Shown here in pieces: positions 2,354 through 56,944 of a DNA stretch of 64,000 nt. The stretch is taken from positions 25,030 to 89,029 of the forward strand of contig JALHOO010000002.1 of NCBI GenBank assembly GCA_022842945.1, written 5' to 3'. The notes beneath the pieces were generated by a model. That model was not told where the DNA came from, made no database searches, and saw only the letters and a program-made list of their open reading frames with translations. Each line of letters starts with the position of its first letter. Positions within the stretch are counted from its first letter, which is position 1. Both the position numbers and the translations under genes were made by a program. The DNA comes from Minisyncoccota bacterium. GTDB taxonomy: Bacteria; Patescibacteriota; Minisyncoccia; Phycocordibacterales; Phycocordibacteraceae.

Positions 2354-3085
2354 TCAGAGAACTCTACCTTCTTCTTCCCTTGAGCCCTCACCTCCTGCAG
2401 GACCAGTCTCTCTTGGCGAAGAGATTATAGTGTCGAACTCATCTTGTGTTATATATCGTGGCTTGTACACACTGCCGCGAGACTCAATCTGGGCAACAAA
2501 GGCTCTCAGGTGATTACGCGAGCCCTTTAAAAGATTTTGGTATACGAGTTTTATATCGTCATTGTCAGACTGAGCCAAGCGTTCTTGCAGATCTTTAATA
2601 TCGAGATCTTCGATGAGAGCACCAACCATAAGCGCATCCATTTCAGACCTTTGTCCTTTCGTAACAAGATCCGTATAGAGCTCTGCTAAATCTGAGTTAG
2701 CAAACTTCCCAGCAGTGTCGTCTAGAACAGGATCTGTAATGTTGTACTTAACAAGCACTGTTCTTACAGCCTCAGTATGGCTCTGTTCACTCTGTGAGAT
2801 GTTTTTAAAAATAGGAAATCCCCACTTTTCGTAAAGCATGGTGTACACATCGCGTGCAAGCTTCTCCTCCTCACGCATGAACAATAGACCCTCCTTCTCA
2901 TTTTCAGAAACACCTTGCACAGGCAGAGATGTAATCTGTGGACGTAAAGACAAGAAATCAGACGAGTCTGGCGTGTCGGAAACAAGTTCGCTTGTACCTC
3001 CTCGCAGCAGACTACCAACTACAACAGCACTCGTAAGACCTAGAGCGACTACTGCGACTGCAATGCCAACTGTTGTTTTTTTCAT
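2354..3085 (-). CDS. DUF2202 ferritin-like domain protein with N-terminal signal/TM anchor
   Basis: FMREEEKLARDVY-type DUF2202 motif. Hydrophobic N-terminus. Confidence 0.55.
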   Translation of the reverse strand: MKKTTVGIAVAVVALGLTSAVVVGSLLRGGTSELVSDTPDSSDFLSLRPQITSLPVQGVSENEKEGLLFMREEEKLARDVYTMLYEKWGFPIFKNISQSEQSHTEAVRTVLVKYNITDPVLDDTAGKFANSDLAELYTDLVTKGQRSEMDALMVGALIEDLDIKDLQERLAQSDNDDIKLVYQNLLKGSRNHLRAFVAQIESRGSVYKPRYITQDEFDTIISSPRETGPAGGEGSREEEGRVL

Positions 3086-3169: not shown

Positions 3170-3200
3170 TTGTTGCGGGGGCCGGAATCGAACCGGCGTC
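3170..3200 (-). ncRNA. tRNA-like 3' module (T-stem GCCGG / loop TTCGATT / CCGGC, then acceptor strand CCCCGCA + A); no canonical 5' half within 100 nt; part of a ~400-bp ORF-free block
   Basis: Minus-strand read ...GACGCCGGTTCGATTCCGGCCCCCGCAACA. The only upstream match to the acceptor strand is GCGGGG near 3485 and TGCGGGA near 3582. Confidence 0.35.
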
Positions 3201-3571
3201 TGGAGGTTCTTTTACACTTACTGTTTCCAGCAAGAATGGACTATCCCATGATCCTGAACCAGGACCCTCCCATTATAGTCTCTGAACCTTTCCCGAATTA
3301 CTTCGAGACTTGGCTGCTGATTGCCGAATCTCCCTGTTTTTCGCGCATTCACGCTCATCCTTTCGGATCACGTTGTAGCACAAGGAGCTCTAACGGTATT
3401 CCAGCAATTTAGAGAGTTTTTCCACTACCCGTTACCGGATAGGGTCACGTTGTTCACATGAGCCTCCCGAGGTACCTCTCCTCTACCCCGCTATGCATTT
3501 CTTCACACAAGCGCACGAGCGCTATGTCCATAGAATACGCCACATCGCGTCTTTTGCAAGTCCTCTAGAAT

Positions 3572-26897: not shown

Positions 26898-26974
26898 GCA
26901 CCCTTAGCTCAGTTGGTTAGAGCACCTAGCTTATACCTAGGCGGTCCTTGGTTCGAGTCCAAGAGGGTGCACCA
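26898..26974 (+). tRNA. tRNA with anticodon loop CTTATAC (anticodon UAU), a candidate tRNA-Ile2(UAU) reading AUA
   Basis: Hand-folded cloverleaf: acceptor GCACCCT/AGGGTGC (7/7 Watson-Crick), D-stem GCTC/GAGC, anticodon stem CCTAG/CTAGG, T-arm CTTGG-TTCGAGT-CCAAG, encoded CCA. Confidence 0.7.
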
Positions 26975-44511: not shown

Positions 44512-44901
44512 TTACCAGATCTCAAAGAGATTCTCTCCTCCTACACGAACCTTGCGAGCTTCAGCGTCAGTGAGCACACCCTTCGGTGTTGAGATAAGGC
44601 GGCTACCCATGCCGTTCTTAACGCTGTGTGCCTCCGCAGACGGAGTGTAGAGACGACGTCCAGGCTTTGATACACGCTTTACGCCGTGGATCTTGTGGTT
44701 GCCGCGCTCGTCGTAGGCAAGAGATACCTCGAACTCGTACGGGCCCTTCCCCTTCGAAACCTCCTTCACGTAGCCTAGAGACTTAAGCTTGTACGCGATT
44801 TCCTCTACGTGCTTCGAAAAAGGCACAGACACCGTCTGCTTGTTGATTGCGCCTGCATTCTTGAGGCGGATGATGAAATCTCCTACGCGGTCAGATACCA
44901 T
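44512..44901 (-). CDS. rpsH: 30S ribosomal protein S8
   Basis: Internal Met start avoids overlap with rpsN. Confidence 0.85.
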   Translation of the reverse strand: MVSDRVGDFIIRLKNAGAINKQTVSVPFSKHVEEIAYKLKSLGYVKEVSKGKGPYEFEVSLAYDERGNHKIHGVKRVSKPGRRLYTPSAEAHSVKNGMGSRLISTPKGVLTDAEARKVRVGGENLFEIW

Positions 44902-44908
44902 ACGAAAA

Positions 44909-45178
44909 TTACCAGGAAGCTTTTTTAACACCCGGAACCTTACCCTCGCGGGCTAGTTCACGGAACACAATGCGAGAGAGGCCGAATGGGCGCATGTAGC
45001 CGCGTCCGCGACCAGATACCGCGCAGCGGTTCTTCACACGGGTAGGGCTTGAGTTCTTTGGGAGCTTCTGAAGGCCTTCCCAATCGCCAGCAGCTTTAAG
45101 AGCCGCACGCTTTTCAGCGAAACGAGCAACGAGCTTAATGCGCTTTTCGTTGCGGGCGAGTTGGGATGCTTTAGCCAT
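44909..45178 (-). CDS. rpsN: 30S ribosomal protein S14
   Basis: 89 aa, C-terminal [17 protein letters not shown]. Confidence 0.9.
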
Positions 45179-45318
45179 AAGAAAAAATAGCTCCGGGGAG
45201 CCGTAAAGACAATCTATCAGCTAGGAAGTAGGCTGTCAAATTGACGAGGGCGGTTCTATGAAGCGTCGCTTAAATCTCTCCAGACCTAGTACCAGCCCTC
45301 TATATTTTATACAGCGAT

Positions 45319-45344
45319 CGGCCAGAAACCTTGGTTTCTGGCCG
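45319..45344 (-). terminator. Hairpin GGCCAGAAACC-TT-GGTTTCTGGCC after the inserted MIF-like gene
   Basis: 11-bp stem with an A/T-rich flank. Confidence 0.55.
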
Positions 45345-45352
45345 ATTAATGC

Positions 45353-45715
45353 TCAAATCTTCGCGAAGACGGTGTCGACGGGCAAAACCCACACGAAACC
45401 CTTGGCTCCCTTCCCGTTCTCTTGGTGGTGATTGTCGAGGAAAGTCCTCACACCCTGACGGATCTTTTCGACGCGATCTGGCAGATTTTCCATACGATCT
45501 GGGAATGCGTGGAGAACGATGTAGATTTCGAACTCCTTCCCATTCAGGGTTCGATCATGCGGCGGGTAGTGTTTGGCAGTTGAGACGATGATGTCTTTAT
45601 CCCTGACACCAAGAGCTGGCGCGATGATTCCAGGTAAGGCCGCGATGAGATCGTCCCTGAACCAGCCGACCCTGTTGGAACTGTCGTGTTCAGAACGAAA
45701 GATGACCAATGGCAT
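45353..45715 (-). CDS. Putative tautomerase-superfamily (MIF/D-dopachrome-tautomerase-like) protein inserted between rplE and rpsN
   Basis: Pro at position 2 (MPLVIFRSEH...), ~120 aa. The beta-alpha-beta pattern resembles MIF. Assignment tentative. Confidence 0.3.
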   Translation of the reverse strand: MPLVIFRSEHDSSNRVGWFRDDLIAALPGIIAPALGVRDKDIIVSTAKHYPPHDRTLNGKEFEIYIVLHAFPDRMENLPDRVEKIRQGVRTFLDNHHQENGKGAKGFVWVLPVDTVFAKI

Positions 45716-45771
45716 TTCTGCCTCCTTTTCTAATCCGTTCTGACCCTATCATAAGCGTATGTAATAAGAAA

Positions 45772-45794
45772 ACAGCCCGCGCTCTGCGGGCTGT
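45772..45794 (-). terminator. Intrinsic terminator after rplE (ACAGCCCGC-GCTCT-GCGGGCTGT + U-tract)
   Basis: 9-bp stem seen. UUUUCUUAUU on the minus RNA. Confidence 0.7.
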
Positions 45795-45812
45795 TTTCTC
45801 TCCTAAACCTGA

Positions 45813-46355
45813 TTATTCAGCGTCCTTCTTGAACGGAATCCCGAGGTGGCGGAAGAATGCATCTGCCTCCTCCTTGGTCTTCGCGGTGGTAACAAGCGTA
45901 ATAGCGAGTCCGAACACGTCCTTAAGGTCCTCGTCTGCGGTCTCAGGGAAGATAGTGTGGTCCTTGATGCCGATAGTGAGGTTACCCATCTCGTCGATAG
46001 CGGTGGCGTTAAGGCCGCGGAAGTCACGAGTACGAGGAAGGGTGATGTGGATGAGCTTCTCGAGGAACTCGTTCATACGAGCGCCGCGAAGCGTAACCTG
46101 GTATCCCACGATGTCGCCTTCGCGCATCTTGAACTGTGCGATGGACTGCTTTGCCGCGCGAGGAGATGCCTTCTGACCCGTGATGCGAGCAAGACGAGTC
46201 TCGACGAAGGCCTTCTTTGCCTTGTCTGCCTTTCCAACGCCGGAAGATACGGTGATCTTCATGAGGCGAGGAGACGCGTTAACGTTGGTGTAGCCGAACG
46301 CTCCCTTAAGGGTCTCAAATGCGCTAGCCTGCTTTTCTTTAGTGATCATATACAA
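45813..46355 (-). CDS. rplE: 50S ribosomal protein L5
   Basis: 180 aa. Confidence 0.9.
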   Translation of the reverse strand: MYMITKEKQASAFETLKGAFGYTNVNASPRLMKITVSSGVGKADKAKKAFVETRLARITGQKASPRAAKQSIAQFKMREGDIVGYQVTLRGARMNEFLEKLIHITLPRTRDFRGLNATAIDEMGNLTIGIKDHTIFPETADEDLKDVFGLAITLVTTAKTKEEADAFFRHLGIPFKKDAE

Positions 46356-46360
46356 AGAGG

Positions 46361-46705
46361 TTATGCGAGGGTGGTGCCACTCTTAACCGTAACGCGGACA
46401 TTCTTGCCGTCCTTGTTCGTCTCGCGCTTTACACGAGTTCCCCTCTTGTCCTTAGGGTCCTGGAGCATGACGTTTGAGATAGCGATAGCCGCTGGCTTCT
46501 CAACGATGCGTCCGGTCTGACCACGAAGTCCGCGGTTGTGGCGCTTCACGAGAGCGATGCCTTCAACGACGATCTTCGCGTCTTCGCGGAGGATCTTCTC
46601 AACGACACCGGTCTTGCCCTTGTCCTTGCCTGAGATAACGACAACAGTGTCGCCCTTCTTGAGCTTGAACTTAGCGGTCTGCTTTCCTTGGGTTGCCTTG
46701 GACAT
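46361..46705 (-). CDS. rplX: 50S ribosomal protein L24
   Basis: KOW domain. Confidence 0.9.
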   Translation of the reverse strand: MSKATQGKQTAKFKLKKGDTVVVISGKDKGKTGVVEKILREDAKIVVEGIALVKRHNRGLRGQTGRIVEKPAAIAISNVMLQDPKDKRGTRVKRETNKDGKNVRVTVKSGTTLA

Positions 46706-46734
46706 ATGCGAAAGGGTTAATAATTAAATAGAGG

Positions 46735-47112
46735 TTATACGACTTCAGGTGCGATAGACGCAATGTTCTGCCATCCGCGCTCAACAAGGTCGCGAGGAAC
46801 GGGTCCGAATACACGGTTACCCTTTGGTCCCATCTCCTTACCCTGCTTCTCGATGAGAACAACTGCGTTGTCATCAAAACGTACGTAGATACCTGACGCG
46901 CGGCGGAATGCCTTACGCTGGCGAACCACAACGGCCTTGAAGATATCCTTCTTCTTAACGGCCTTGCGGGGCTCCGCAGACTGGATGGATACGATAACCA
47001 CGTCCCCAATCTCTGCATAGCGGCGCTTTGATCCTCCGAGCACCTTGAACACACGGGCGATCCTTCCGCCTGAGTTGTCTGTGACCGTTACGATTGACTG
47101 GGGCTGTACCAT
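46735..47112 (-). CDS. rplN: 50S ribosomal protein L14
   Basis: 125 aa. Confidence 0.9.
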   Translation of the reverse strand: MVQPQSIVTVTDNSGGRIARVFKVLGGSKRRYAEIGDVVIVSIQSAEPRKAVKKKDIFKAVVVRQRKAFRRASGIYVRFDDNAVVLIEKQGKEMGPKGNRVFGPVPRDLVERGWQNIASIAPEVV

Positions 47113-47122
47113 AAATAAGAGA

Positions 47123-47371
47123 TTACTTTACGAGCGTGAATGACTTACGCTTCGACATCGGCGCGCATCCAACAATCGTTACCTGGTCCCCCACCTTAGC
47201 AGTGTTGCCCTCGTCGTGTACGAGGAACTTCTTGGTGCGGGTCTGGTACTTCTTGTACTTTGGGTGCTTCACGTACCGAGAGACGGCAACGGTGATTGTG
47301 TCCGTCATGGCCGTCTTAACGACGGTTCCCTTGAAGGACTGGGGCTTAGTTGTTGGTGTAGGTGTTTCCAT
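47123..47371 (-). CDS. rpsQ: 30S ribosomal protein S17
   Basis: 82 aa. Confidence 0.9.
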   Translation of the reverse strand: METPTPTTKPQSFKGTVVKTAMTDTITVAVSRYVKHPKYKKYQTRTKKFLVHDEGNTAKVGDQVTIVGCAPMSKRKSFTLVK

Positions 47372-47376
47372 AATAC

Positions 47377-47580
47377 TTATGCGGTTGGGGCGTTCTTGCG
47401 TGCGGTCTGTTCGGTAAGAATGCGAGCGATGTCCTTGCGGGCCTTTCCAGCTAGGCTTGCGTCCTTAACGCGTCCTCCCGCTGCAGAGAAACGTAGGGTG
47501 CGAAGCTCTTCGCGCTTCTCTCCGAGCATCTTTACGAGGTCCTCGCTCTTTGCGTCCTTGAATGAAGTTTTCTTAGCCAT
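47377..47580 (-). CDS. rpmC: 50S ribosomal protein L29
   Basis: 67 aa. Confidence 0.85.
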   Translation of the reverse strand: MAKKTSFKDAKSEDLVKMLGEKREELRTLRFSAAGGRVKDASLAGKARKDIARILTEQTARKNAPTA

Positions 47581-47583
47581 ACA

Positions 47584-48003
47584 TTAACGGGTTATGACCG
47601 TAGTCTTAAGCGGAAGCTTCGATCCTGCGCGGCGCATAGCGTCGCGAGCCTTCGCATCATCAATACCATCGAGCTCGAAGAGGATGCGTCCTGGACGAAC
47701 CTCGAACACAAAGTGCTTCGGATCTCCCTTACCCTTACCCATGCCCACCTCAGCTGGCTTGTTCGTGATAGGACGATCCGGGAAGATGCGGATCCAGAGC
47801 TTACCTCCCTTTCCCGTTGCGCGGGAGAGTACCTTACGAGCGGCCTCAATCTGGTTTGAGGTTACGCGAGACGGCGTAGTAGCACGAAGGCCGTACGAAC
47901 CGAACGACACGGTGATACCGCGAGTATCAGGACGTGCAAGACGCTCCGGGGACTTACGTCCGGTCTGCCACTTGCGGTGCTTAACTTTCTTAGGGAATAG
48001 CAT
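47584..48003 (-). CDS. rplP: 50S ribosomal protein L16
   Basis: 139 aa. Confidence 0.9.
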   Translation of the reverse strand: MLFPKKVKHRKWQTGRKSPERLARPDTRGITVSFGSYGLRATTPSRVTSNQIEAARKVLSRATGKGGKLWIRIFPDRPITNKPAEVGMGKGKGDPKHFVFEVRPGRILFELDGIDDAKARDAMRRAGSKLPLKTTVITR

Positions 48004-48014
48004 AGTACTAAATG

Positions 48015-48734
48015 TTAGCGGCGAGGACCGTTAGACGACGTAGACGGGCGCTCAGACGCTGGACGAGTTCCGCTCTCAGCGTTGAAGGTCTCGCCGAGGT
48101 AGATCCAAACCTTGATACCAAGGAGACCGTACGGAAGAAGAGCCTCTACGTGTGCGTAATCAATGTTTGCACGGAAAGTCTGAAGCGGGATACGGCCACG
48201 CTTGATCTGCTCAGTGCGGCTCATGTCAGCACCGCCAAGACGTCCAGAAAGGACGATGCGAACACCCACAACCTCGCGAACTGACATAACCTTCTCAACG
48301 GTCTGCTTAAGGACACGGCGGAACGGCATGCGCTTCTCGAGTCCCTCAGCAACCATGTACCCAACAACAGAGGCCGAAGTCTCAGGCTGGCGGATCTCCA
48401 TGATGTCGAGCTTAACGGCGCGCTTGGCACCTGTTGCCTTCGAGTTAATGAGGGTGGTTATCTCGTTGCGGAGTTTGGTTGCGTTCTCTCCAGAGCGACC
48501 GATAACAATACCGGGACGTGCCGTGTGGAGGATAACGCGCACCTCGCCCTGTGAGCGCTCAATCTCAAGGTCTGCGATGTGCATGCTCTTTGCACGCTTC
48601 TTGAAGTAGCCACGGATGGCCGCGTCCACCGCGATGTTCTCGCGGTACGACTTCTTGTCGCCAGCAAACCAGCGACTCTTCCAGTCACGGATGATGCCAA
48701 GGCGATGTGCGTACGGATGGACGGTGTGAGTCAT
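48015..48734 (-). CDS. rpsC: 30S ribosomal protein S3
   Basis: KH domain plus C-terminal Arg/Pro-rich tail. Confidence 0.9.
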   Translation of the reverse strand: MTHTVHPYAHRLGIIRDWKSRWFAGDKKSYRENIAVDAAIRGYFKKRAKSMHIADLEIERSQGEVRVILHTARPGIVIGRSGENATKLRNEITTLINSKATGAKRAVKLDIMEIRQPETSASVVGYMVAEGLEKRMPFRRVLKQTVEKVMSVREVVGVRIVLSGRLGGADMSRTEQIKRGRIPLQTFRANIDYAHVEALLPYGLLGIKVWIYLGETFNAESGTRPASERPSTSSNGPRR

Positions 48735-48739
48735 GGTAA

Positions 48740-49132
48740 TTACTTAGTGTCAGATGAAAGACGTACGAAAACCTGTGAACGGCGGCGGCGAATAGGTGCT
48801 GAACGACCCATAGCACGTGGCATAGCGCGCACAATCATGCCTGCTGAGTCTACGCGGATCTCAGCAACCTTAAGAGTAGCCATGTCCTCGCCGCGAGCCT
48901 TTGCCGTAGCTGCCGCTGACTCAATGAGCTTCTTGATAGGAAGAGCTGCGCGCTTTGGGAGGAATGAGAGTGCTGCAACGGCCTCGGACACCTTCTTGCC
49001 CTTGATCATCTCCGTAACGAGACGCACCTTGCGGGGCGACTGGTTGTACGTGTCGATAGACGCGCGGATAGCCTTCTTTGCTTCCTCCTTGCGAAGTGCA
49101 GCTGGCTGCTTGTGTGTTCCGGTAGAGGCCAT
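48740..49132 (-). CDS. rplV: 50S ribosomal protein L22
   Basis: 130 aa. Confidence 0.9.
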   Translation of the reverse strand: MASTGTHKQPAALRKEEAKKAIRASIDTYNQSPRKVRLVTEMIKGKKVSEAVAALSFLPKRAALPIKKLIESAAATAKARGEDMATLKVAEIRVDSAGMIVRAMPRAMGRSAPIRRRRSQVFVRLSSDTK

Positions 49133-49134
49133 GA

Positions 49135-49482
49135 TTATTTCTTCTTAGGTGCTGCAGGGGCAGCCTTAGCAGCCTTAGCCGCTGCAATCTCAGCCTGCTG
49201 CTTCTTCTGCTCAAGCTGCTTCTGCATCTTTCCTCCGTGACGGATGAACTTCTTCGTTGGGGAGAACTCTCCAAGGCGGTGACCTACCATTTCCTCAGTA
49301 ACGAGGACGTCTACGTGTGTCTTCCCGTTATGGACACCGAATGTGAATCCGATGAACTCAGGGGAGATCTGGCTGTTGCGTGCCCACGTCTTAATAGCCG
49401 GCGTAGAAGACGGCTTCTTATCCTGAACCTTCTTCAGGAGATTTACATCAACGTATGGGCCTTTTTTAAGGGAGCGGGACAT
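49135..49482 (-). CDS. rpsS: 30S ribosomal protein S19 with Lys/Ala-rich C-terminal extension
   Basis: 115 aa, tail [23 protein letters not shown]. Confidence 0.9.
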
Positions 49483-49562
49483 AGATAGACAATGGAAAGC
49501 CCGCCAGGCGGGATAGATAGAATCTATAGGAAACGAGGGGAAGTGTCAAATTAAGGGCTCGC

Positions 49563-50042
49563 GTGCTAGGGTTCTGCCAGACGTTCAACACAAACCAGGA
49601 GGCTCCCGTGGAACGTGCAGTAGTTGCCGTATGGTTCAACCACAGTACTCCCGGGAGATTTCCGGGTGAAAGGGGCGTATACAACACCTATGTCCTTAGG
49701 ATCGAAGATCCTGCAGGTGAACTTCAAAACCTGACAGAGAAATACCTGAAATCTTGGGACCGGTTACATGAAAGACCCGAAAGCTGGTGGCGCAGGGTCA
49801 GATGCAAGGGTCTGAAGCAGAAGGCGCTGAAGCGTGCTCTTGCCTGTCTCAAGGCGAGACCACGGCCGAATGTCACTGTCAGCGTTTCTAGCAGCGATGA
49901 ACACGTTCCTTCTTCCCCTTGGCCCTACATTGGCAAGCTTCGGGAAATGATTCTTTTTGGAGGAACGTCTCAATTCTGGATCCTAAAGGATCAGCAACTC
50001 AAGGACTTCAGAGAGGCCGTTAAGGCCGACAAACAGGACTGA
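49563..50042 (+). CDS. Hypothetical protein (159 aa) on the opposite strand inside the S10 cluster
   Basis: Divergent from rpsS. Followed by a strong terminator. No motif recognised. Confidence 0.4.
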   Translation: MLGFCQTFNTNQEAPVERAVVAVWFNHSTPGRFPGERGVYNTYVLRIEDPAGELQNLTEKYLKSWDRLHERPESWWRRVRCKGLKQKALKRALACLKARPRPNVTVSVSSSDEHVPSSPWPYIGKLREMILFGGTSQFWILKDQQLKDFREAVKADKQD

Positions 50043-50051
50043 AAGAGTTCA

Positions 50052-50084
50052 GGGGCTCCGCAACCGCGGAGCCCTTTCTTTTTG
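50052..50084 (+). terminator. Intrinsic terminator GGGGCTCCGC-AACC-GCGGAGCCC + TTTCTTTTTG
   Basis: 10-bp GC stem and T-tract. Confidence 0.75.
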
Positions 50085-50101
50085 CGCGCTATACTATTCC
50101 C

Positions 50102-50920
50102 ATGATTGACCTCACCACCCCGAACGCTCGCCGCATGGAGATCCTGGGCGTTGTTATCCTCGTTAGCATCGTTCTCATCTTTACCCTCTGGTACATGGCC
50201 ACACACGAGGCTCCACGGCCCTACACAGGCGCCCCTGAGGTTGCTACAACGACGCCTGAGGCACTTCCCCCGCAAATAGTTGAGGAACACGGCCAGTACT
50301 ACGATATAGAGGCCTCGTACCCAGGAGAAACCCTCATTAAAGCCTCTGCAGGCGCTGAGGCTGACATTGAAGCTGTAGCACTCATGGAGGACTTCGTAGA
50401 GGACACTATCAAGGATTTCAAGACCCAAGGACGTTTCGATACCCTCACCCCTGAGGACATCCAAATAATGGGTCTCTCAGACACCCGCAAGGAGAGCATC
50501 CAGATAACGTACGAAGAGAAAGAAGGACCCAAGACGGTGTCGTACGTATATACCCTCTTCGTTGATACCCTTGGCGCGCACCCCAACGCCTTCTACCGCA
50601 CCTTCACCTTCGATCGCACAACCGGCGAAGAGCTCAAGATAGAAGATCTCTTCATTCCCCGTGCCGCGTACCTTACGCGCCTTTCCGCTATCGCTGAGTT
50701 CGAGCTCTCAAAGTCCCTCGGAGATTTCGTTGATGTAGACTATATCCAACAAGGCACTGCTCCTGAGTCTCAGAACTTCCAGAGCTACAGTATCGAAGGC
50801 AACAACCTCGTACTTATATTCCCACCGTACCAGGTGGCACCCTATGCAGCAGGCACGCAGACAGTGTCCATTCCGCTCTCGCAGCTATCAGAGATTCTGA
50901 AGCCTGAGTACCAGCCATAG
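50102..50920 (+). CDS. Membrane-anchored DUF4163/DUF3298 (RsiV/PdaC C-terminal-like) domain protein
   Basis: N-terminal TM. YYDIEASYP and later motifs reminiscent of DUF4163+DUF3298. Tentative. Confidence 0.4.
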   Translation: MIDLTTPNARRMEILGVVILVSIVLIFTLWYMATHEAPRPYTGAPEVATTTPEALPPQIVEEHGQYYDIEASYPGETLIKASAGAEADIEAVALMEDFVEDTIKDFKTQGRFDTLTPEDIQIMGLSDTRKESIQITYEEKEGPKTVSYVYTLFVDTLGAHPNAFYRTFTFDRTTGEELKIEDLFIPRAAYLTRLSAIAEFELSKSLGDFVDVDYIQQGTAPESQNFQSYSIEGNNLVLIFPPYQVAPYAAGTQTVSIPLSQLSEILKPEYQP

Positions 50921-50948
50921 AACAGAGGTCTTTTCGAAGACCTCTTTC

Positions 50949-51242
50949 TTACGCCTTCTCTTCAAGCTCTGCTATGCGCCGTTCATGACCGAGCACCGTA
51001 ACCGAGTCCGTATCAATCGCGGCAAGCGCTGAAGTAAGATCGTCCTGTACGTCAGCAATGGAAGCTTTAATCTTCTCTGTATTGCGTTCAAGGGTGCTCA
51101 GGCGAACCTCCACAGAATCGACCCGCTGGTTAACCGTTAAGACCGCATCTTTCACACCGTCTATCTTCTGATTGGTTAGCGCCAGCACCTCAAGCACATC
51201 GTGAAGCGTTGGTTCGAGCTCTGAAGAAGCATCCTTAGACAT
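50949..51242 (-). CDS. Small coiled-coil protein
   Basis: 97 aa, heptad-like Leu/Val spacing. Lies right after the rplB terminator. Confidence 0.35.
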   Translation of the reverse strand: MSKDASSELEPTLHDVLEVLALTNQKIDGVKDAVLTVNQRVDSVEVRLSTLERNTEKIKASIADVQDDLTSALAAIDTDSVTVLGHERRIAELEEKA

Positions 51243-51276
51243 GGACTAATAATACACCCATCCGGAGGACAAGAAG

Positions 51277-51300
51277 AAAACCCCGCTTTCGCGGGGCTTT
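51277..51300 (-). terminator. Intrinsic terminator directly after rplB (GCCCCGC-GAAA-GCGGGGC + UUUUCUUCUUG)
   Basis: Seen in sequence. Also T-rich on the plus side. Confidence 0.7.
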
Positions 51301-51309
51301 CTCTTGTCT

Positions 51310-52155
51310 TTAGCGCTTCTTTCCAACCTTTCGGCGAGAAACAATAAACTTGTTGGAGTACTTCTTCGGTGTACGGGTCTTCTGTCCCTTTCCGGTTGGC
51401 TTACCCCACATGCTCTTCGCACGACGGAGACCACGTCCCTGCTTACCCTCACCACCTCCATGAGGATGGTCTACCGGGTTCATAGCCGTACCACGAACAG
51501 TTGGGCGGATACCCTTCCATCGGCTCTTTCCAGCCTTTCCGTAGTTCTGGAGGCGCTGCTCCTCGTTACCTACAGCACCAATAGATGCCCATGCAGACTC
51601 GATAACCTTACGGATCTCAGATGATGGCATCTTGATCTGTGCGTATCCAGCGTCATGCGCCACAATCTCAGCGTAGTTTCCAGCAGAGCGTGCAATGCGT
51701 GCACCTGCTCCTGGACGAAGCTCAACGTTGTAGATGAAGGTTCCAGAAGGAATCTTTCCAAGAGGAAGACGGTTACCAGTCTTAATTGGTGCCTTCTCAG
51801 AGACGATGAATGTGTCCCCTACCTTCATGTCCTTAGGAACCGTTACGTAGCGACGCTCTCCGTCTGCGAACACCACGAGTGCGATGAACGCGGTGCGGTA
51901 TGGGTCGTACTCGATAGTCTCAACACGTGCTGGGATGTCGTGCTTGTTGTACTTAAAGTCGACATCACGAAGACGCTTCTTGTGACCTCCACCCTGATGA
52001 CGCGTAGTGATACGTCCCGCATTGTTGCGACCTGCCTGGTTCTTCTTTGAAGAAAGAAGCGCCTTGTGCGGCTTAACGCCCGGAGTCAGTACGCCACGGT
52101 ACGTGACGACGGTCATGCTGCGACGAGATGCGGATGTTGGCTTGAATGACTTCAT
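51310..52155 (-). CDS. rplB: 50S ribosomal protein L2
   Basis: Start moved to MKSFKPTSASRR. Conserved C-terminal His. Confidence 0.9.
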   Translation of the reverse strand: MKSFKPTSASRRSMTVVTYRGVLTPGVKPHKALLSSKKNQAGRNNAGRITTRHQGGGHKKRLRDVDFKYNKHDIPARVETIEYDPYRTAFIALVVFADGERRYVTVPKDMKVGDTFIVSEKAPIKTGNRLPLGKIPSGTFIYNVELRPGAGARIARSAGNYAEIVAHDAGYAQIKMPSSEIRKVIESAWASIGAVGNEEQRLQNYGKAGKSRWKGIRPTVRGTAMNPVDHPHGGGEGKQGRGLRRAKSMWGKPTGKGQKTRTPKKYSNKFIVSRRKVGKKR

Positions 52156-52165
52156 ACTAATCAGG

Positions 52166-52543
52166 TTATGCGAAGGTGATGGTATCACCTGCCTTTAGGT
52201 ACACGTATGCCTTGTGGCGACGTGCGCGAGTTCCTACACCGCGGCGAGTGCGGAGCGCCACCTTCTTTGCCGGAAGGTTAACCATACGGACCTTCATAGG
52301 TGTCACCTTGTACGCGTTGATGATCGCGTTCGCCACATCAATCTTGGTTGCTGAAGGAGATACCTCGAAGACGTATACGCCGTTCTCAGAAGAGATAAGT
52401 GCCTTCTCAGAGAACCATGGGCGCTTCAAGACGTTCGCAAGACGCGCGTCGTCAGCTGGAAGAATCCCGCGACCCCAGTTACGGGTCTCAGACTTAGCCT
52501 TCTTGGCCTTAGTTGTCTTCTTGTCGTTAGAGAAAAGTGCCAT
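52166..52543 (-). CDS. rplW: 50S ribosomal protein L23
   Basis: 125 aa. Confidence 0.85.
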   Translation of the reverse strand: MALFSNDKKTTKAKKAKSETRNWGRGILPADDARLANVLKRPWFSEKALISSENGVYVFEVSPSATKIDVANAIINAYKVTPMKVRMVNLPAKKVALRTRRGVGTRARRHKAYVYLKAGDTITFA

Positions 52544-52553
52544 ACAAGTAGTG

Positions 52554-53321
52554 TTATGCCTTCTTTGTTAGGCGGCTAGAGAGGATCGGAAGCGCCTCAG
52601 CAGGATTCTCGATAACAAGGAACTTCTTGTTTACGAGATCAACTGGGTTCAAGTTGCGCACCTCCTCAAGCGTAAGGCTTCCGATGTTGCGGAAGGACTT
52701 CTCGCTCGTTGAGTCCTTCTTTGCGAAGGCAAAGACAGCTGCGTTCTTGCGCTTGGTTGCGAGCTCAGACACGTTAGCGCCCTTTGCAACAGCAACGAGC
52801 ATCGCCTTAGCGTCTGCAGTCTTTGGCGTTGCGAATGCGAAGGAATCTACAAAGAGAACCTGTCCGTCACGATGCTTGCGCGAGAGCACCACAGCGAGCG
52901 CTGCAGCACGCATCTTGCGGTTGATCTTAACGGAGTAGTCCTTCTCAGCGCGTGGACCATGAGTCACACCTCCACCCTTCCAAATAGGAGAGCGGGTCGA
53001 TCCGTGACGAGCGCGTCCCGTTCCCTTCTGCTTCCACGGCTTCTTGCCTCCTCCGGATACTTCTCCACGGAACTTGGTGTGTGCCGTTGTTGGGCGAGCG
53101 TTTGCCTGCATACCAACCACCACCTGGTGTACGAGGTCTGAGTTCCACGCGACGTTGAAGAGCTCTGCAGGAAGCGTTACCGATCCAGCGTTCTCTCCCT
53201 TGGCGTTCCAAATAGTTGCCTCTAGAGACACTTCCTTCTTAGCGCTCTTAGGCACGATTACAGCCGCCTCCTTCTTTACAGGAGCCTTCTTTGCGACAGT
53301 GTTCTTTGCAGGGGTAGCCAT
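52554..53321 (-). CDS. rplD: 50S ribosomal protein L4
   Basis: 255 aa. Confidence 0.9.
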   Translation of the reverse strand: MATPAKNTVAKKAPVKKEAAVIVPKSAKKEVSLEATIWNAKGENAGSVTLPAELFNVAWNSDLVHQVVVGMQANARPTTAHTKFRGEVSGGGKKPWKQKGTGRARHGSTRSPIWKGGGVTHGPRAEKDYSVKINRKMRAAALAVVLSRKHRDGQVLFVDSFAFATPKTADAKAMLVAVAKGANVSELATKRKNAAVFAFAKKDSTSEKSFRNIGSLTLEEVRNLNPVDLVNKKFLVIENPAEALPILSSRLTKKA

Positions 53322-53332
53322 AGTACTAAAAA

Positions 53333-53947
53333 TTACATCGAACGAATCTCGACGAGTGCACCAGGAGCTCCTGGAATAGCACCCGAGATGATCATCTCGC
53401 CGGTAGCAGCGTTTACCTTAAGCACCTTAAGGTTCTGTACGGTTACGCGGTCTGAACCCATGCGGCCGGCCATCTTCATGCCCTTAGCCACGCGACCTCC
53501 AGCGCGACCTCCACCACCAATCGAACCCGCCTCACGCTCAGAGTGCTTCTGACCGTGCGAGCGGCGGCCTCCATGGAACCCATGGCGCTTCACCACTCCT
53601 GCGAAGCCCTTACCCTTAGAGGTTGAGGCAACTACAACCACGTCGCCCTCTGCGAAGATGTCCGCAGAAATCTCAGCACCAACCGTAAGGTCAGTTGAGT
53701 CAACGCGGAACTCCTTCATGGCCTTGTATGCCTTGCCCTTGGTGTGGCCGAGCTGAGCCTTATTTACGCGAGCTTCCTTCTGATCCTGGAACGCGACCTG
53801 TACGGCCGAGTACTTATCAGCCCCGTCCGCTGTCTTTACCTGGGTAACGACAACCGGTCCCGCGTTAACCACGGTACCGGCGAACACCTCACCCTTGTCA
53901 TTGAAGACCTGGGTCATGCGTCCTTTGCGGGCGAGAATGAATTTCAT
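53333..53947 (-). CDS. rplC: 50S ribosomal protein L3
   Basis: Start moved to MKFILARKGRMTQVF. Confidence 0.9.
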   Translation of the reverse strand: MKFILARKGRMTQVFNDKGEVFAGTVVNAGPVVVTQVKTADGADKYSAVQVAFQDQKEARVNKAQLGHTKGKAYKAMKEFRVDSTDLTVGAEISADIFAEGDVVVVASTSKGKGFAGVVKRHGFHGGRRSHGQKHSEREAGSIGGGGRAGGRVAKGMKMAGRMGSDRVTVQNLKVLKVNAATGEMIISGAIPGAPGALVEIRSM

Positions 53948-54282
53948 AGACAAAAGAAAATCGCGCTTCAACAGCGCGTCGGCCCACAAAGGGGCTTTCG
54001 GCTGGAGGTCCGGGGTCCGAAGACGCCGTACATAGCAACTCAGGGACTATACCTGATTCTATTCCGGGATGCAAATCCTGTGCTAAAGTGCCCTCACCAT
54101 AGCTTCGTATGGAAGGGAGATCTTTTATGAGTGTCCAGGAAACTCAACACCAAGCCGAAACAACGGAAAGCCCTGAGCCGCCCGGATTCAACGAAACCGG
54201 ACCGGCGAGCTACTACGCTCCGGAAGGATTCGGCGACCCTGCCGAGCATTCCTCCGGGTATGCAGACGGCCGCATCTAGGAA

Positions 54283-54350
54283 GCCGGGCCCGGCGCAAAT
54301 GCGTGCCGGGCCCTTTCGATACAGAAAAGCGCCCCGCAAGGCGGGACGCT
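54283..54350 (-). terminator. Two tandem hairpins (GGCCCGGC-GCAAATGCGT-GCCGGGCC and AGCGCCCCGC-AAG-GCGGGACGCT + U-tract) after the 91-aa ORF
   Basis: Seen in sequence. Minus-RNA UUUUCUGUAUCG follows the proximal hairpin. Confidence 0.55.
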
Positions 54351-54625
54351 CATTTCTTCCTCCGCTTCCGATCTGCGGGAGCATCATCAGGAGCGGTCGT
54401 GAATCTTCCTCCGACCTTTTCTCCGGCGATAACAATCCCCTTCTCGTAGCGATATCTCCTCGCCTTCTTGTTCCAGAGCTTGTCCTTGAGCGGAGCCAGC
54501 CTGGTGACTCCCGTTTCCGGAGGTCGTGCGTCATGCATAGCCTTCAGGACTACTCCGACTGCGGCATTGCGTCTGTAGACGCGGAGAGTGCTCTCAAGAG
54601 GCTTGGTCTTAATCCCGTCGACCAT
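54350..54625 (-). CDS. Small basic hypothetical protein (91 aa) between rpsJ and rplC
   Basis: Own terminators on both sides. KGIVIAGEKVGGRFT motif. Lys/Arg-rich tail. Confidence 0.4.
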   Translation of the reverse strand: MVDGIKTKPLESTLRVYRRNAAVGVVLKAMHDARPPETGVTRLAPLKDKLWNKKARRYRYEKGIVIAGEKVGGRFTTAPDDAPADRKRRKK

Positions 54626-54684
54626 GATTCGAACCTTTCAAACAACGAACAGAAGAAGAGCATACACCCGTATACACAAAAGCA

Positions 54685-54708
54685 AAACCGCCCTCTCGGG
54701 CGGTTTTG
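54685..54708 (-). terminator. Intrinsic terminator after rpsJ (AAAACCGCCC-TCTC-GGGCGGTTTT)
   Basis: 10-bp stem. UUUUGCUUUUGUGU on the minus RNA. Confidence 0.75.
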
Positions 54709-54723
54709 CTTCTCCCTTTCGGG

Positions 54724-55080
54724 TTAGACCATCTTCACATCAATCGTCACGCCTGAAGGCAGGGTGAGGTTCGTGAGAGCCTCGATAACCTTAGGGTTTG
54801 GACTGAGGATGTCGATCAAACGCTTGTGGATGCGCATTTCGAACTGCTCACGTGCGTCCTTGTGGACGAAGGTTGAGCGGTTCACGGTCCAGCGCTTGAT
54901 TTCGGTTGGAAGAGGCACAGGTCCTACGGTCTTCGCATCAAAGCGAGACGCGGTGTCCATGATCTGCTTCACCGAGAGGTCCAGGATCTTGTGCTCGTAG
55001 GCACGAACGCGGATCCGGAGCTTCGGCTCGCTTGGTGCCTCGGCAACCTTCTTGACGGTCTTCTTCGCGGTTGTAGCCAT
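54724..55080 (-). CDS. rpsJ: 30S ribosomal protein S10
   Basis: 118 aa. Confidence 0.9.
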   Translation of the reverse strand: MATTAKKTVKKVAEAPSEPKLRIRVRAYEHKILDLSVKQIMDTASRFDAKTVGPVPLPTEIKRWTVNRSTFVHKDAREQFEMRIHKRLIDILSPNPKVIEALTNLTLPSGVTIDVKMV

Positions 55081-55102
55081 ACGAGTAAGAAGTTAAAGCG
55101 GA

Positions 55103-56308
55103 TTAGGCGACGATCTTTGTGACCACACCAGCACCCACCGTCTTGCCACCCTCGCGAACCGAGAAGCGGAAGTTGTCCTCAAGCGCGATTGGCGCTGTGA
55201 GCTTTACCTTGAAGGTAACGGTGTCGCCTGGCATAACCATCTCCTTTCCTTCTGGAAGCGTAACCTCGCCCGTAACGTCCGTTGTACGAACGTAGAACTG
55301 TGGCTTGTAACCAGAGAAGAATGGGGTGTGGCGGCCTCCCTCGTCCTTGGAGAGGATGTACACCTCAGCCTCGAACTCAGTGTGTGGCTTTACGGAGCCG
55401 AGCTTCGCAAGCACCTGTCCGCGATGGACGTCCTCCTTCTTCGTACCGCGAAGAAGGATACCAGCGTTGTCGCCAGCCTGTCCCTCCTGGAGCTGCTTGT
55501 TGAACATCTCGATACCGGTGACGGTTGTCTTGACCGTGTCCTTAAGACCAACGATCTCGATTTCCTCGCCCACCTTGATAACACCGCGCTCGATGCGTCC
55601 GGTGATAACGGTACCGCGTCCTTCAATCGAGAAGATGTCCTCGATAGGCATGAGGAACGGCTTGTCGAGCTCGCGCTCAGGCTGTGGGAAGTACGTGTCC
55701 ATAGTGTCCACGAGCTCCTTAACCTTAAGTGCCCACTCGTCGTTCGCGTCAGTTGCGTTAAGCGCGCGAAGTCCAGAACCGCGAATGATCGGGGTAGCTG
55801 CACCGTCGTAGCCCTGCTTGGTAAGAAGCTCGCGCATCTCTTCCTCAACGAGGTCGAGCATGTCTACGTCCTCCACCATGTCCGTCTTGTTGAGGAACAC
55901 GATGAGACGTGGAACACCCACCTGCTTTGCAAGGAGAATGTGCTCACGAGTCTGTGGCATCGCACCGTCTGTTGCCGCAACCACGAGTACTGCGCCGTCC
56001 ATCTGGGCAGCTCCCGTAATCATGTTCTTGATGTAGTCGGCGTGGCCTGGAGCGTCGATGTGCGCGTAGTGGCGGTTCGGGCTCTCGTACTCAGAGTGGT
56101 GAAGGGCGATGGTAATACCACGAGCCTTCTCCTCAGGAGCGTTGTCGATGTTGTCGACGTTCTCCGCGCGGGCCTTGTAGCCTGCAGCGGTGTTGAGGTT
56201 GAGCACATTGAGAATACCGGCGGTGAGCGTGGTCTTTCCGTGGTCCACGTGACCGATGGTACCCACGTTCATGTGCGGCTTGCTTCGGTCGAATGCTTCT
56301 GCTGCCAT
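55103..56308 (-). CDS. tuf: Elongation factor Tu
   Basis: [15 protein letters not shown], NKxD. 401 aa. Confidence 0.97.
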
Positions 56309-56944
56309 ACGATTGGTAGGTTATTGGTAGCTAAAAATAAATTTTTGCCGCCGCGCCTGCCTGTTTGAAGACAGGCGACCAAGGCGAAGGTCGGACTAAC
56401 CCGCGCAACGCCTTTCAGCCATCCCGACCTCCGTAAGGAGAGGAACATTGAAAAGAGCGCCGTATTTCGCGTTACTTCTTAAACTACCGGAGCTGGGGCC
56501 CTCGGTCAAGCGCAAAAGATAGAGGCGACCCTAAGGCCGCCTCCTTTTCCTCCCCCAGAGCCGCTTCAAGGGAGAGCCCACCAGGTCCCTGTTCTCATAG
56601 AGGAGAGCACTAACGACCAGTATGGCCACCACGGTGCGTAGGGGCCATGTGGCGAGTGTCGAACCGAGTGACACGGATTTGCCCGTATTCTGAGCGTTCT
56701 TGGTCATATTCCCCTCCCAGGGTTACCCGTTCATGATAGTCAAAACCGTTCGGATACAAAGACATGAGCCCTGCATCCACGGCGCCGTACCAGGATTCTT
56801 CAGTAGCTACCGCAGGCAGCATATCCAAAGACAGCATAGTGCTCCCAAGAAGGAGATTCTTTCTGGATGTTCTCATTACAATGCCCTTCGTGTGCGTCTA
56901 CTTGCACGATACGTGACTAACAAAAAACAGCAAACCAGTAGGAG

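Follow-up and report, generated by a model that had tools for sequence, protein, structure and literature searches.

The adjacency of rplB and rpsS, the genes of ribosomal proteins L2 and S19, is among the most conserved gene neighbourhoods of prokaryotes. In the 64,000-nucleotide stretch of a Minisyncoccota bacterium analysed here (assembly GCA_022842945.1, contig JALHOO010000002.1; hereafter the window), the two genes are separated by 1827 bp holding three open reading frames (ORFs), two on the plus strand and one on the minus strand. This raises the question of whether the S10 operon of one organism was invaded or mis-assembled, or whether the interruption is an inherited trait of a larger group. 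We conclude that it is quite probably a genuine and evolutionarily old break of the S10 operon in a Kaiserbacteria-like clade of Paceibacteria (Patescibacteria), and that the break forms a slot with a fixed resident, a gene for a DUF3298 membrane protein. We have high confidence in what is said here on structure and evolution, and low confidence in any role proposed for this protein or any reason for its position.

The gene slot between rplB and rpsS

The minus-strand genes of the window run in the order tuf (55103–56308), rpsJ, rplC, rplD, rplW, rplB, then rpsS, rplV, rpsC and so on to rplE, then rpsN. The ORFs at the interrupted junction are the following:

51310–52188, minus strand: rplB (L2), 68–99% identical to L2 of 80 related genomes; last gene of a predicted rplC-rplD-rplW-rplB unit
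50949–51242, minus strand: coiled-coil gene cc97, 97 aa, with weak coiled-coil matches
50102–50920, plus strand: DUF3298 gene, 272 aa, with a Pfam DUF3298 match
49608–50042, plus strand: orphan gene hyp144, 144 aa; its ORF reaches back to GTG 49563 (159 aa)
49135–49482, minus strand: rpsS (S19); opens a predicted rpsS to rplE unit, whose end is the terminator at 45776–45790

All three ORFs of the slot were found at the coordinates and on the strands reported in the initial annotation, which had been made from the sequence alone. Each has homologues elsewhere, so they are real genes rather than chance ORFs. The hypothetical protein had been described as 159 aa long; the plus-strand ORF 49563–50042 does exist, but a start at GTG 49608, behind AGGAGG at 49597–49602, is more likely. 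The resulting 144 aa are also what the gene callers of the public data give (P0001).

Relatives were sampled through rplB, with one genome per species and the best 80 of 253 rplB relatives retained, at the L2 identities given above. These 80 loci come from Patescibacteria metagenome-assembled genomes labelled Paceibacterota, Parcubacteria or Kaiserbacteria. Both rplB and rpsS are present in 67 loci, and in 57 of these they enclose a DUF3298 homologue, always on the opposite strand and at 33–74% protein identity. A canonical gap of 50–82 bp was found in three loci (L062, L075 and L080). Sampling from the side of the resident, by a metagenome scan using the family alignment, gave 80 further loci. 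Here, rpsS lies divergent upstream of DUF3298 in 35/44 loci with at least 1.5 kb of upstream sequence available, and rplB lies convergent downstream in 30/38 loci with at least 2.5 kb available on that side. Two look-ups in precomputed gene calls and Pfam labels returned the order L3-L4-L23-L2, variable genes, opposite-strand DUF3298, S19-L22. Comparative synteny, the check proposed in the initial annotation, thus places the rplB–rpsS interruption with its opposite-strand DUF3298 gene across nearly the whole clade. The accompanying remark that opposite-strand genes inside the S10 operon are very rare holds for bacteria in general; in this clade, however, the break is the rule, and it is one of three.

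We also observed DUF3298 homologues flanked by neither rplB nor rpsS (L143, L149, L151, L157–L159, L163, L164 and L168). These are mostly more divergent (33–48% identity), and the contexts of such off-slot homologues might reveal the source of the gene. Two relatives, L029 (5606–6900) and L054 (11412–12485), have the DUF3298 gene of the slot broken up into two or three ORFs, possibly as pseudogenes or through frameshift errors.

In a neighbour-joining tree of seven concatenated ribosomal proteins, DUF3298-bearing loci span nearly the whole ingroup, and the gene is missing in two outgroups and a few scattered lineages. The simplest reading, and a likely one, is a single old gain near the base of the clade followed by several losses, in which the gene would have been fixed once at a promoter-carrying junction. 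Its persistence would then reflect purifying selection on the gene together with a low tolerance of rearrangement inside the ribosomal cluster.

Transcription signals at the slot

The slot and its borders carry the following predicted signals:

51268–51308, minus strand: rplB terminator, with an A-tract, the GC stem CCCCGC/GCGGGG (core 51281–51296) and a U-tract; −31.1 kcal/mol, z −6.7
51249–51254, minus strand: −10 box TATTAT of cc97, 6 nt before the ATG
50919–50949, both strands: bidirectional terminator hairpin of the convergent DUF3298 and cc97 genes; −14.6 kcal/mol on the plus strand (z −3.9) and −16.3 kcal/mol on the minus strand (z −3.2)
50090–50095, plus strand: −10 box TATACT of the DUF3298 gene, 6 nt before the ATG
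50051–50076, plus strand: terminator after the orphan, separating it from the DUF3298 gene; 11-bp stem with 8 GC pairs and a T-run; −23.7 kcal/mol, z −3.6
49564–49572, plus strand: candidate extended −10 element TGcTAGGGT, a putative promoter of the orphan, back-to-back with the rpsS promoter
49521–49549, minus strand: rpsS promoter, TTGACA (49549–49544), 17 nt and TAGATT (49526–49521), matching 10 of the 12 sigma-70 consensus positions
49500–49512, minus strand: hairpin of the rpsS 5′ leader, CCCGCCUGGCGGG, with a CUUUCC tail, 1–2 nt after the predicted transcription start; −7.5 kcal/mol

The three predicted terminators (51268–51308, 50051–50076 and 50919–50949) each combine a GC-rich hairpin with a U-tract, as expected of intrinsic terminators. 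Of the 72 relatives with a widened gap, 60 have a strict terminator in the 130 nt that follow rplB; none of the three with a canonical gap does. The minus-strand coiled-coil gene was found behind the rplB terminator, as the initial annotation had it. It had also let the two plus-strand genes end in one terminator; instead, each has a hairpin of its own (50051–50076 and 50919–50949). In relatives, hairpins equivalent to the one after the orphan precede the TATACT box.

A −10-like hexamer lies 4–9 nt before the DUF3298 start in 39/54 relatives, and in 28 of those 39 it is exactly TATACT. Such spacing suggests that the DUF3298 mRNA is probably leaderless, and the position of TATTAT predicts the same for cc97. 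In a crude scan of the window we further noticed TAnAnT boxes 5–8 nt before the ATG of other first-in-unit genes, e.g. at 3085, 4165, 7945 and 18993 on the minus strand and 24604 on the plus strand, and a recognizable Shine-Dalgarno sequence at few genes. Leaderless mRNAs seem to be common in this genome.

The promoter region that had been postulated before rpsS carries a near-consensus promoter sequence. Only four sites in the 64 kb fit TTGACn-N16-18-TAnnnT, the rpsS promoter among them, and a TTGACn-17-TAnnTT motif occurs 33–39 nt before the rpsS ATG in 59/68 sequences. Behind this motif, 60/68 sequences have a GC hairpin and a T-rich tail, and over about 60 species the sequence of the rpsS leader hardly varies. 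The stem of the hairpin is the organism's usual terminator stem, with seven copies in the window versus 0.23 expected. We prefer to read the hairpin as a 5′-terminal stabilizing stem-loop, by analogy with what is generally known of mRNA decay in Gram-positive bacteria. Leader variants of the form CGCGC...GCGCG were considered as compensatory changes and rejected: in the alignment their five pairs are unchanged but for a U-G wobble, and the stem is extended. Rfam was searched with gathering scores across the whole window and, at E ≤ 1, across 44800–56600; no leader or gap family emerged, only terminator-like chance hits. On the other side of the intergenic region, the block GTGCTAGGGTTC, which holds the candidate extended −10 element, is kept in L002, L003, L004, L006, L009 and L013 despite a differing downstream gene.

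L075, with a gap of 78 bp, has both the promoter and the hairpin; in L062 (82 bp) the hairpin alone was detected. Because the promoter occurs at so short a gap, it need not have arisen through the insertion, and it may have rendered the rplB–rpsS junction permissive for insertion.

Taken together, the signals suggest the following arrangement. The rplC-rplB unit would stop at an intrinsic terminator, and the rpsS-rplE unit would be started anew by a sigma-70-type promoter of its own, its short leader opening with a hairpin. The slot between them would hold as its constant resident the independently transcribed, probably leaderless, opposite-strand DUF3298 gene, around which passengers come and go, here the orphan upstream and the small coiled-coil gene downstream. 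The proposed division of the S10 cluster into rplC-rplB and rpsS-rplE units is therefore upheld at the level of sequence signals, which are conserved in relatives.

Could the position itself be functional? The back-to-back arrangement might couple expression of the surface protein to ribosomal protein synthesis, or the antisense gene and the hairpins might insulate the two units from each other. DUF3298 indeed stays beside rpsS while its neighbours turn over, lies divergent and 90–250 bp from rpsS in many relatives, and about 80% of the family members sampled from the protein side are found in the slot. However, in the window and in many relatives another gene and a terminator stand between DUF3298 and the rpsS promoter, the DUF3298 gene has its own −10 box, and seven to ten lineages lost the slot DUF3298 yet kept the rpsS promoter and hairpin. 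Linkage inside a rearrangement-poor cluster is also expected even without selection on position. We regard a functional position as a minor possibility. Slightly more doubtful, in our view, is that the slot is a regulatory module and no passive scar, with the promoter and the 13-nt CCCGC-loop-GCGGG leader acting as a new autoregulatory or stabilizing operator of the S19–L5 unit and DUF3298 kept by coupling to ribosome synthesis. If that were true, an envelope or host-contact factor could be matched to growth.

The resident and the passengers of the slot

The DUF3298 protein matches Pfam DUF3298 (PF11738) at residues 181–260 with 55.2 bits against a cutoff of 24.1 (E = 1.4e-14), and 615 homologues were found. 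Its AlphaFold2 (AF2) model (predicted local distance difference test (pLDDT) 93) has a transmembrane (TM) helix at residues 7–34, a Pro/Thr-rich linker and a two-domain ectodomain; the model and the family alignment leave about 6–15 residues ahead of the helix, a short cytoplasmic tail. The Pfam match and the modelled helix bear out the DUF3298 domain and the membrane anchor of the initial description. The DUF4163/PdaC domain (PF13739) itself gave no Pfam match at E ≤ 1 in the window protein and a weak one in homologue P0106. Foldseek retrieved 3cyg, 3s5t, 5jen (RsiV with lysozyme), 4e72 and 2hhi (MPT64) with E values from 3e-12 to 2e-7, and the model aligns over 212–246 columns with the two-domain structures 3cyg, 5jen and 4e72. 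A phmmer search of PDB sequences returned 3cyg (E 9e-8) and MPT64 (E 2.5e-7). The 272-aa product is thus modelled as a type-II single-pass membrane protein, N-terminus inside, with an extracytoplasmic, putative DUF4163+DUF3298 pair of the MPT64/RsiV-ectodomain fold. We infer that it may be a surface module binding a cell-wall or hydrolase-type ligand, and not a regulator. It diverges faster than the flanking ribosomal proteins (69–74% identity where L2 is 99% identical), which is unremarkable for an envelope protein.

The fold invites a more specific reading, namely that of an anti-sigma factor or lysozyme sensor of the RsiV type. Its ectodomain shares the two-domain fold of lysozyme-bound RsiV (5jen, E 7e-10), a single TM helix with the N-terminus inside is modelled as in RsiV, and homologue P0027 is labelled 'RsiV family protein' by NCBI. 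Against this, the NCBIfam equivalog NF052658 scores 19 bits versus a cutoff of 250, and the cytoplasmic tail of about 6–12 residues leaves no sigma-binding domain before the TM helix. There is no gene for an extracytoplasmic function (ECF) sigma factor (sigV) next to it, its neighbours being hyp144, cc97, rplB and rpsS, and the same is true in relatives. The juxtamembrane WYMATH appears to lack the small residue at −3 needed by a signal-peptidase site, and MPT64, which has the same fold, does not bind lysozyme (PMC5014341). An RsiV-type function is therefore very unlikely. Assignment as an Rv3036c-type esterase (NCBIfam NF043047) was rejected at 50.9 bits, far below the equivalog cutoff of 200.

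The passengers behave differently from this resident. For the orphan, 1.8e9 representative proteins yielded a single distant homologue, P0133. Weak homologues matching it in position and strand occur in L003 and L068, and profile iteration added L004, L006, L012 and L041. A domain search, which the initial annotation had suggested, gave no match in Pfam, NCBIfam or PHROG, and the AF2 model (pLDDT 53) is unusable. The orphan is a fast-evolving member of a narrower family that some of the relatives have at this position too. The coiled-coil protein has ten homologues in 5.8e9 proteins and is found in the slot of five loci (L004, L006, L043, L057 and L067); against Pfam, NCBIfam and PHROG it gave sub-threshold coiled-coil noise only and no curated family. 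In other species the slot holds a 2OG-Fe(II) oxygenase gene (ten loci), HIT and HD genes, purC with purE, pyrF, or the gene of an AAA_18 protein, possibly a P-loop kinase. The content varies even between relatives with 99% identical L2. Since only DUF3298 is constant while the other slot genes vary, the slot is a site of gene turnover around a single fixed resident. The single 1.8-kb three-gene insertion first described thus resolves into an old DUF3298 resident, a narrower orphan family and a patchy coiled-coil gene.

Beside this, we observed a second unannotated family (153–233 aa, motif G-W-[WHL]-R-N-C) at the orphan's position between DUF3298 and rpsS in L002, L014, L026, L040 and L065, with no match in Pfam. 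The window orphan carries a stretch, SWWRRVRC, faintly like this motif.

The same passengers could suggest a recent horizontally acquired or mobile island in the operon of this one organism: the orphan is almost without homologues and the coiled-coil gene has only ten, the coiled-coil protein faintly matches phage families, and slot content differs among close relatives. Yet the slot has none of the marks of a mobile element or genomic island. A repeat search found no target-site duplications or terminal inverted repeats flanking it, no integrase or transposase family matched the three ORFs in Pfam, NCBIfam or PHROG, and the GC content of 0.49–0.57 within the slot shows no anomaly against 0.52–0.57 in the flanks. 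Moreover, the DUF3298 core is kept in place across the clade with a divergence that tracks the ribosomal proteins, and the orphan has the six positional homologues named above. A recent island is thus highly improbable; if any part is younger or evolves faster, it is the two small passengers.

The assembly was checked against six Logan contigs, independently assembled from six sequencing runs, which are 100% identical to window 49477–51850. They run right across the rplB junction and through all of the intergenic region 49483–49607, up to the rpsS start codon. All six (L081–L086) begin at the same base, 49477, 6 nt into rpsS, probably an assembly-graph branch where co-occurring strains have a near-identical rpsS leader and coding sequence. 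An assembly or binning chimera that fused the three genes to the ribosomal cluster, which the initial annotation had named as the possible refutation, is effectively refuted: although the Logan contigs barely cross the left junction, a common break at 49477 is what such a graph would produce, the same join is present in all six assemblies, and the order rplB, opposite-strand DUF3298, rpsS recurs in 57 independent related genomes and in dozens of contigs from metagenomes, of which some exceed 500 kb.

Several points weigh against the reading of an old break with a fixed resident. About 20% of the metagenomic DUF3298 homologues sit outside the slot. The tree is crude and built on the best 80 of 253 relatives, so the gain point and the number of losses are approximate, and the canonical-gap loci L062 and L075 are nested within the DUF3298 clade, which requires clean excisions or tree errors. 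The promoters, the terminators and the leaderless start are predictions from consensus matches and conservation. In the rpsS leader hairpin 96.6% of cells are paired with 0 compensatory pairs and an invariant stem, which makes covariation uninformative on an RNA role. Finally, a ligand cannot be transferred from RsiV or the fold to the DUF3298 protein, because MPT64 shares the fold and does not bind lysozyme.

Further breaks in the cluster and known systems

The rplB–rpsS junction is not the only one affected: in most relatives, rpsJ–rplC and rplE–rpsN are widened as well. In the window, every broken junction shows a terminator, then a promoter-like site, then a short leader with a hairpin:

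54350–54625, minus strand: ORF in the rpsJ–rplC gap, 91 aa, very basic, co-oriented with the ribosomal genes
53962–53978, minus strand: rplC leader hairpin
45179–45812: rplE–rpsN junction, with a terminator at 45776–45790 and a 120-aa ORF at 45353–45715 (minus strand) behind AGGAGG
45211–45239, minus strand: rpsN promoter, the second TTGACA-17-TAGATT in the window
45189–45202, minus strand: rpsN leader hairpin

The 91-aa ORF is flanked by predicted terminators at about 54670–54700 and at 54327–54351. It is 77–83% identical in L001 and L002 and 55% identical in L009, and has no Pfam match; the overlapping ORFs 54094–54534 (minus strand) and 54131–54727 (plus strand) were discarded as shadows of this minus-strand gene. 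The 120-aa ORF has no homologue in the 80 loci. We noticed that rpsS, rpsN and rplC share a leader design consisting of a promoter, a short GC hairpin near the predicted 5′ end, a U-rich stretch and an ATG without Shine-Dalgarno sequence; their hairpins (that of rpsS at 49500–49512) follow the same design with different stem sequences.

Two tRNA genes elsewhere in the window were noted in passing. The anticodon loop of tRNA-Met(CAT) at 3172–3492 (minus strand) is interrupted by a 249-nt group I intron (Rfam RF00028 at 3217–3448, 67 bits); the split gene was missed by the default tRNA scan and found by aragorn with introns allowed. A tRNA-Ile with anticodon TAT (UAU) lies at 26898–26974 (plus strand). 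In most bacteria, AUA is read by a CAU tRNA modified to lysidine (tilS).

We found no description of the rplB–rpsS break, of an S10 interruption in Patescibacteria or of the DUF3298 resident in the searchable literature, whose coverage is incomplete, so that this is weak evidence. The AGNOSTOS paper was rejected as a precedent, since its subject is another locus, rpsF-rpsR in Pseudomonadales. For Gammaproteobacteria and Bacilli, a published account describes how small groups of genes entered the conserved transcription-translation cluster (PMC8046335). As in our clade, a few unrelated genes sit at a junction of the ribosomal cluster and pass to the descendants, some of which lose them again, and the junction subsequently widens or becomes disconnected. 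The events analysed in detail there lie mostly between operons (rpoBC–str and str–S10), with one (nrdHEF) inside the rpoBC operon. In contrast, the break described here lies inside the classical S10 operon, its resident is on the opposite strand and fixed in at least 57 species, and the rpsJ–rplC and rplE–rpsN breaks accompany it. The clade-wide interruption with its fixed opposite-strand membrane-protein gene offers a simple synteny marker for the clade and a natural example of a ribosomal super-operon fragmenting at junctions that have their own promoters. A pipeline built on the assumption of a contiguous, co-directional ribosomal block should not flag such interruptions as mis-assemblies.

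A known system close to the resident itself is RsiV (PDB 5JEN; PMC5014341, PMC4183432), which in Bacillus, Clostridioides and Enterococcus serves as anti-sigma-V factor and lysozyme receptor. The slot protein resembles it in its modelled single-pass membrane topology and in an extracytoplasmic two-domain fold, putatively a DUF4163+DUF3298 pair, that Foldseek matched over 225 columns; it lacks the cytoplasmic sigma-binding domain and the adjacent sigV, and its equivalog score falls below the cutoff. MPT64 (Rv1980c) and the esterase Rv3036c of Mycobacterium tuberculosis have in common with our protein the beta-grasp/DUF3298 fold and the motifs GAHP... and FPPY..P.AAG. Unlike these secreted, soluble proteins, the slot protein keeps its TM anchor, and the genomic contexts are unrelated. 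The best structural and sequence match is 3CYG, an uncharacterized DUF3298 protein of Fervidobacterium nodosum (Foldseek E 3e-12, TM score 0.78 on target), for which, unlike the slot gene, no link to a ribosomal cluster is known. The slot singles out a well-conserved surface protein, confidently modelled, in organisms whose cell-surface biology is almost unexplored.

In Escherichia coli, the S10 operon runs from rpsJ to rpsQ as a single transcript under L4 control at the leader. The window has the same genes in the same order, with gaps of 735 bp (rpsJ–rplC) and 1827 bp (rplB–rpsS), terminators and promoter-like sites that do not fit the classical single-transcript operon. Unlike in E. coli, the genes appear to be divided into rpsJ, rplC-rplB, rpsS-rplE and rpsN onwards, each with a promoter-like site, a short hairpin leader and a terminator. 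If these predicted signals hold, ribosomal protein regulation in these ultra-small bacteria could not work as in E. coli, where L4 controls one S10 transcript.

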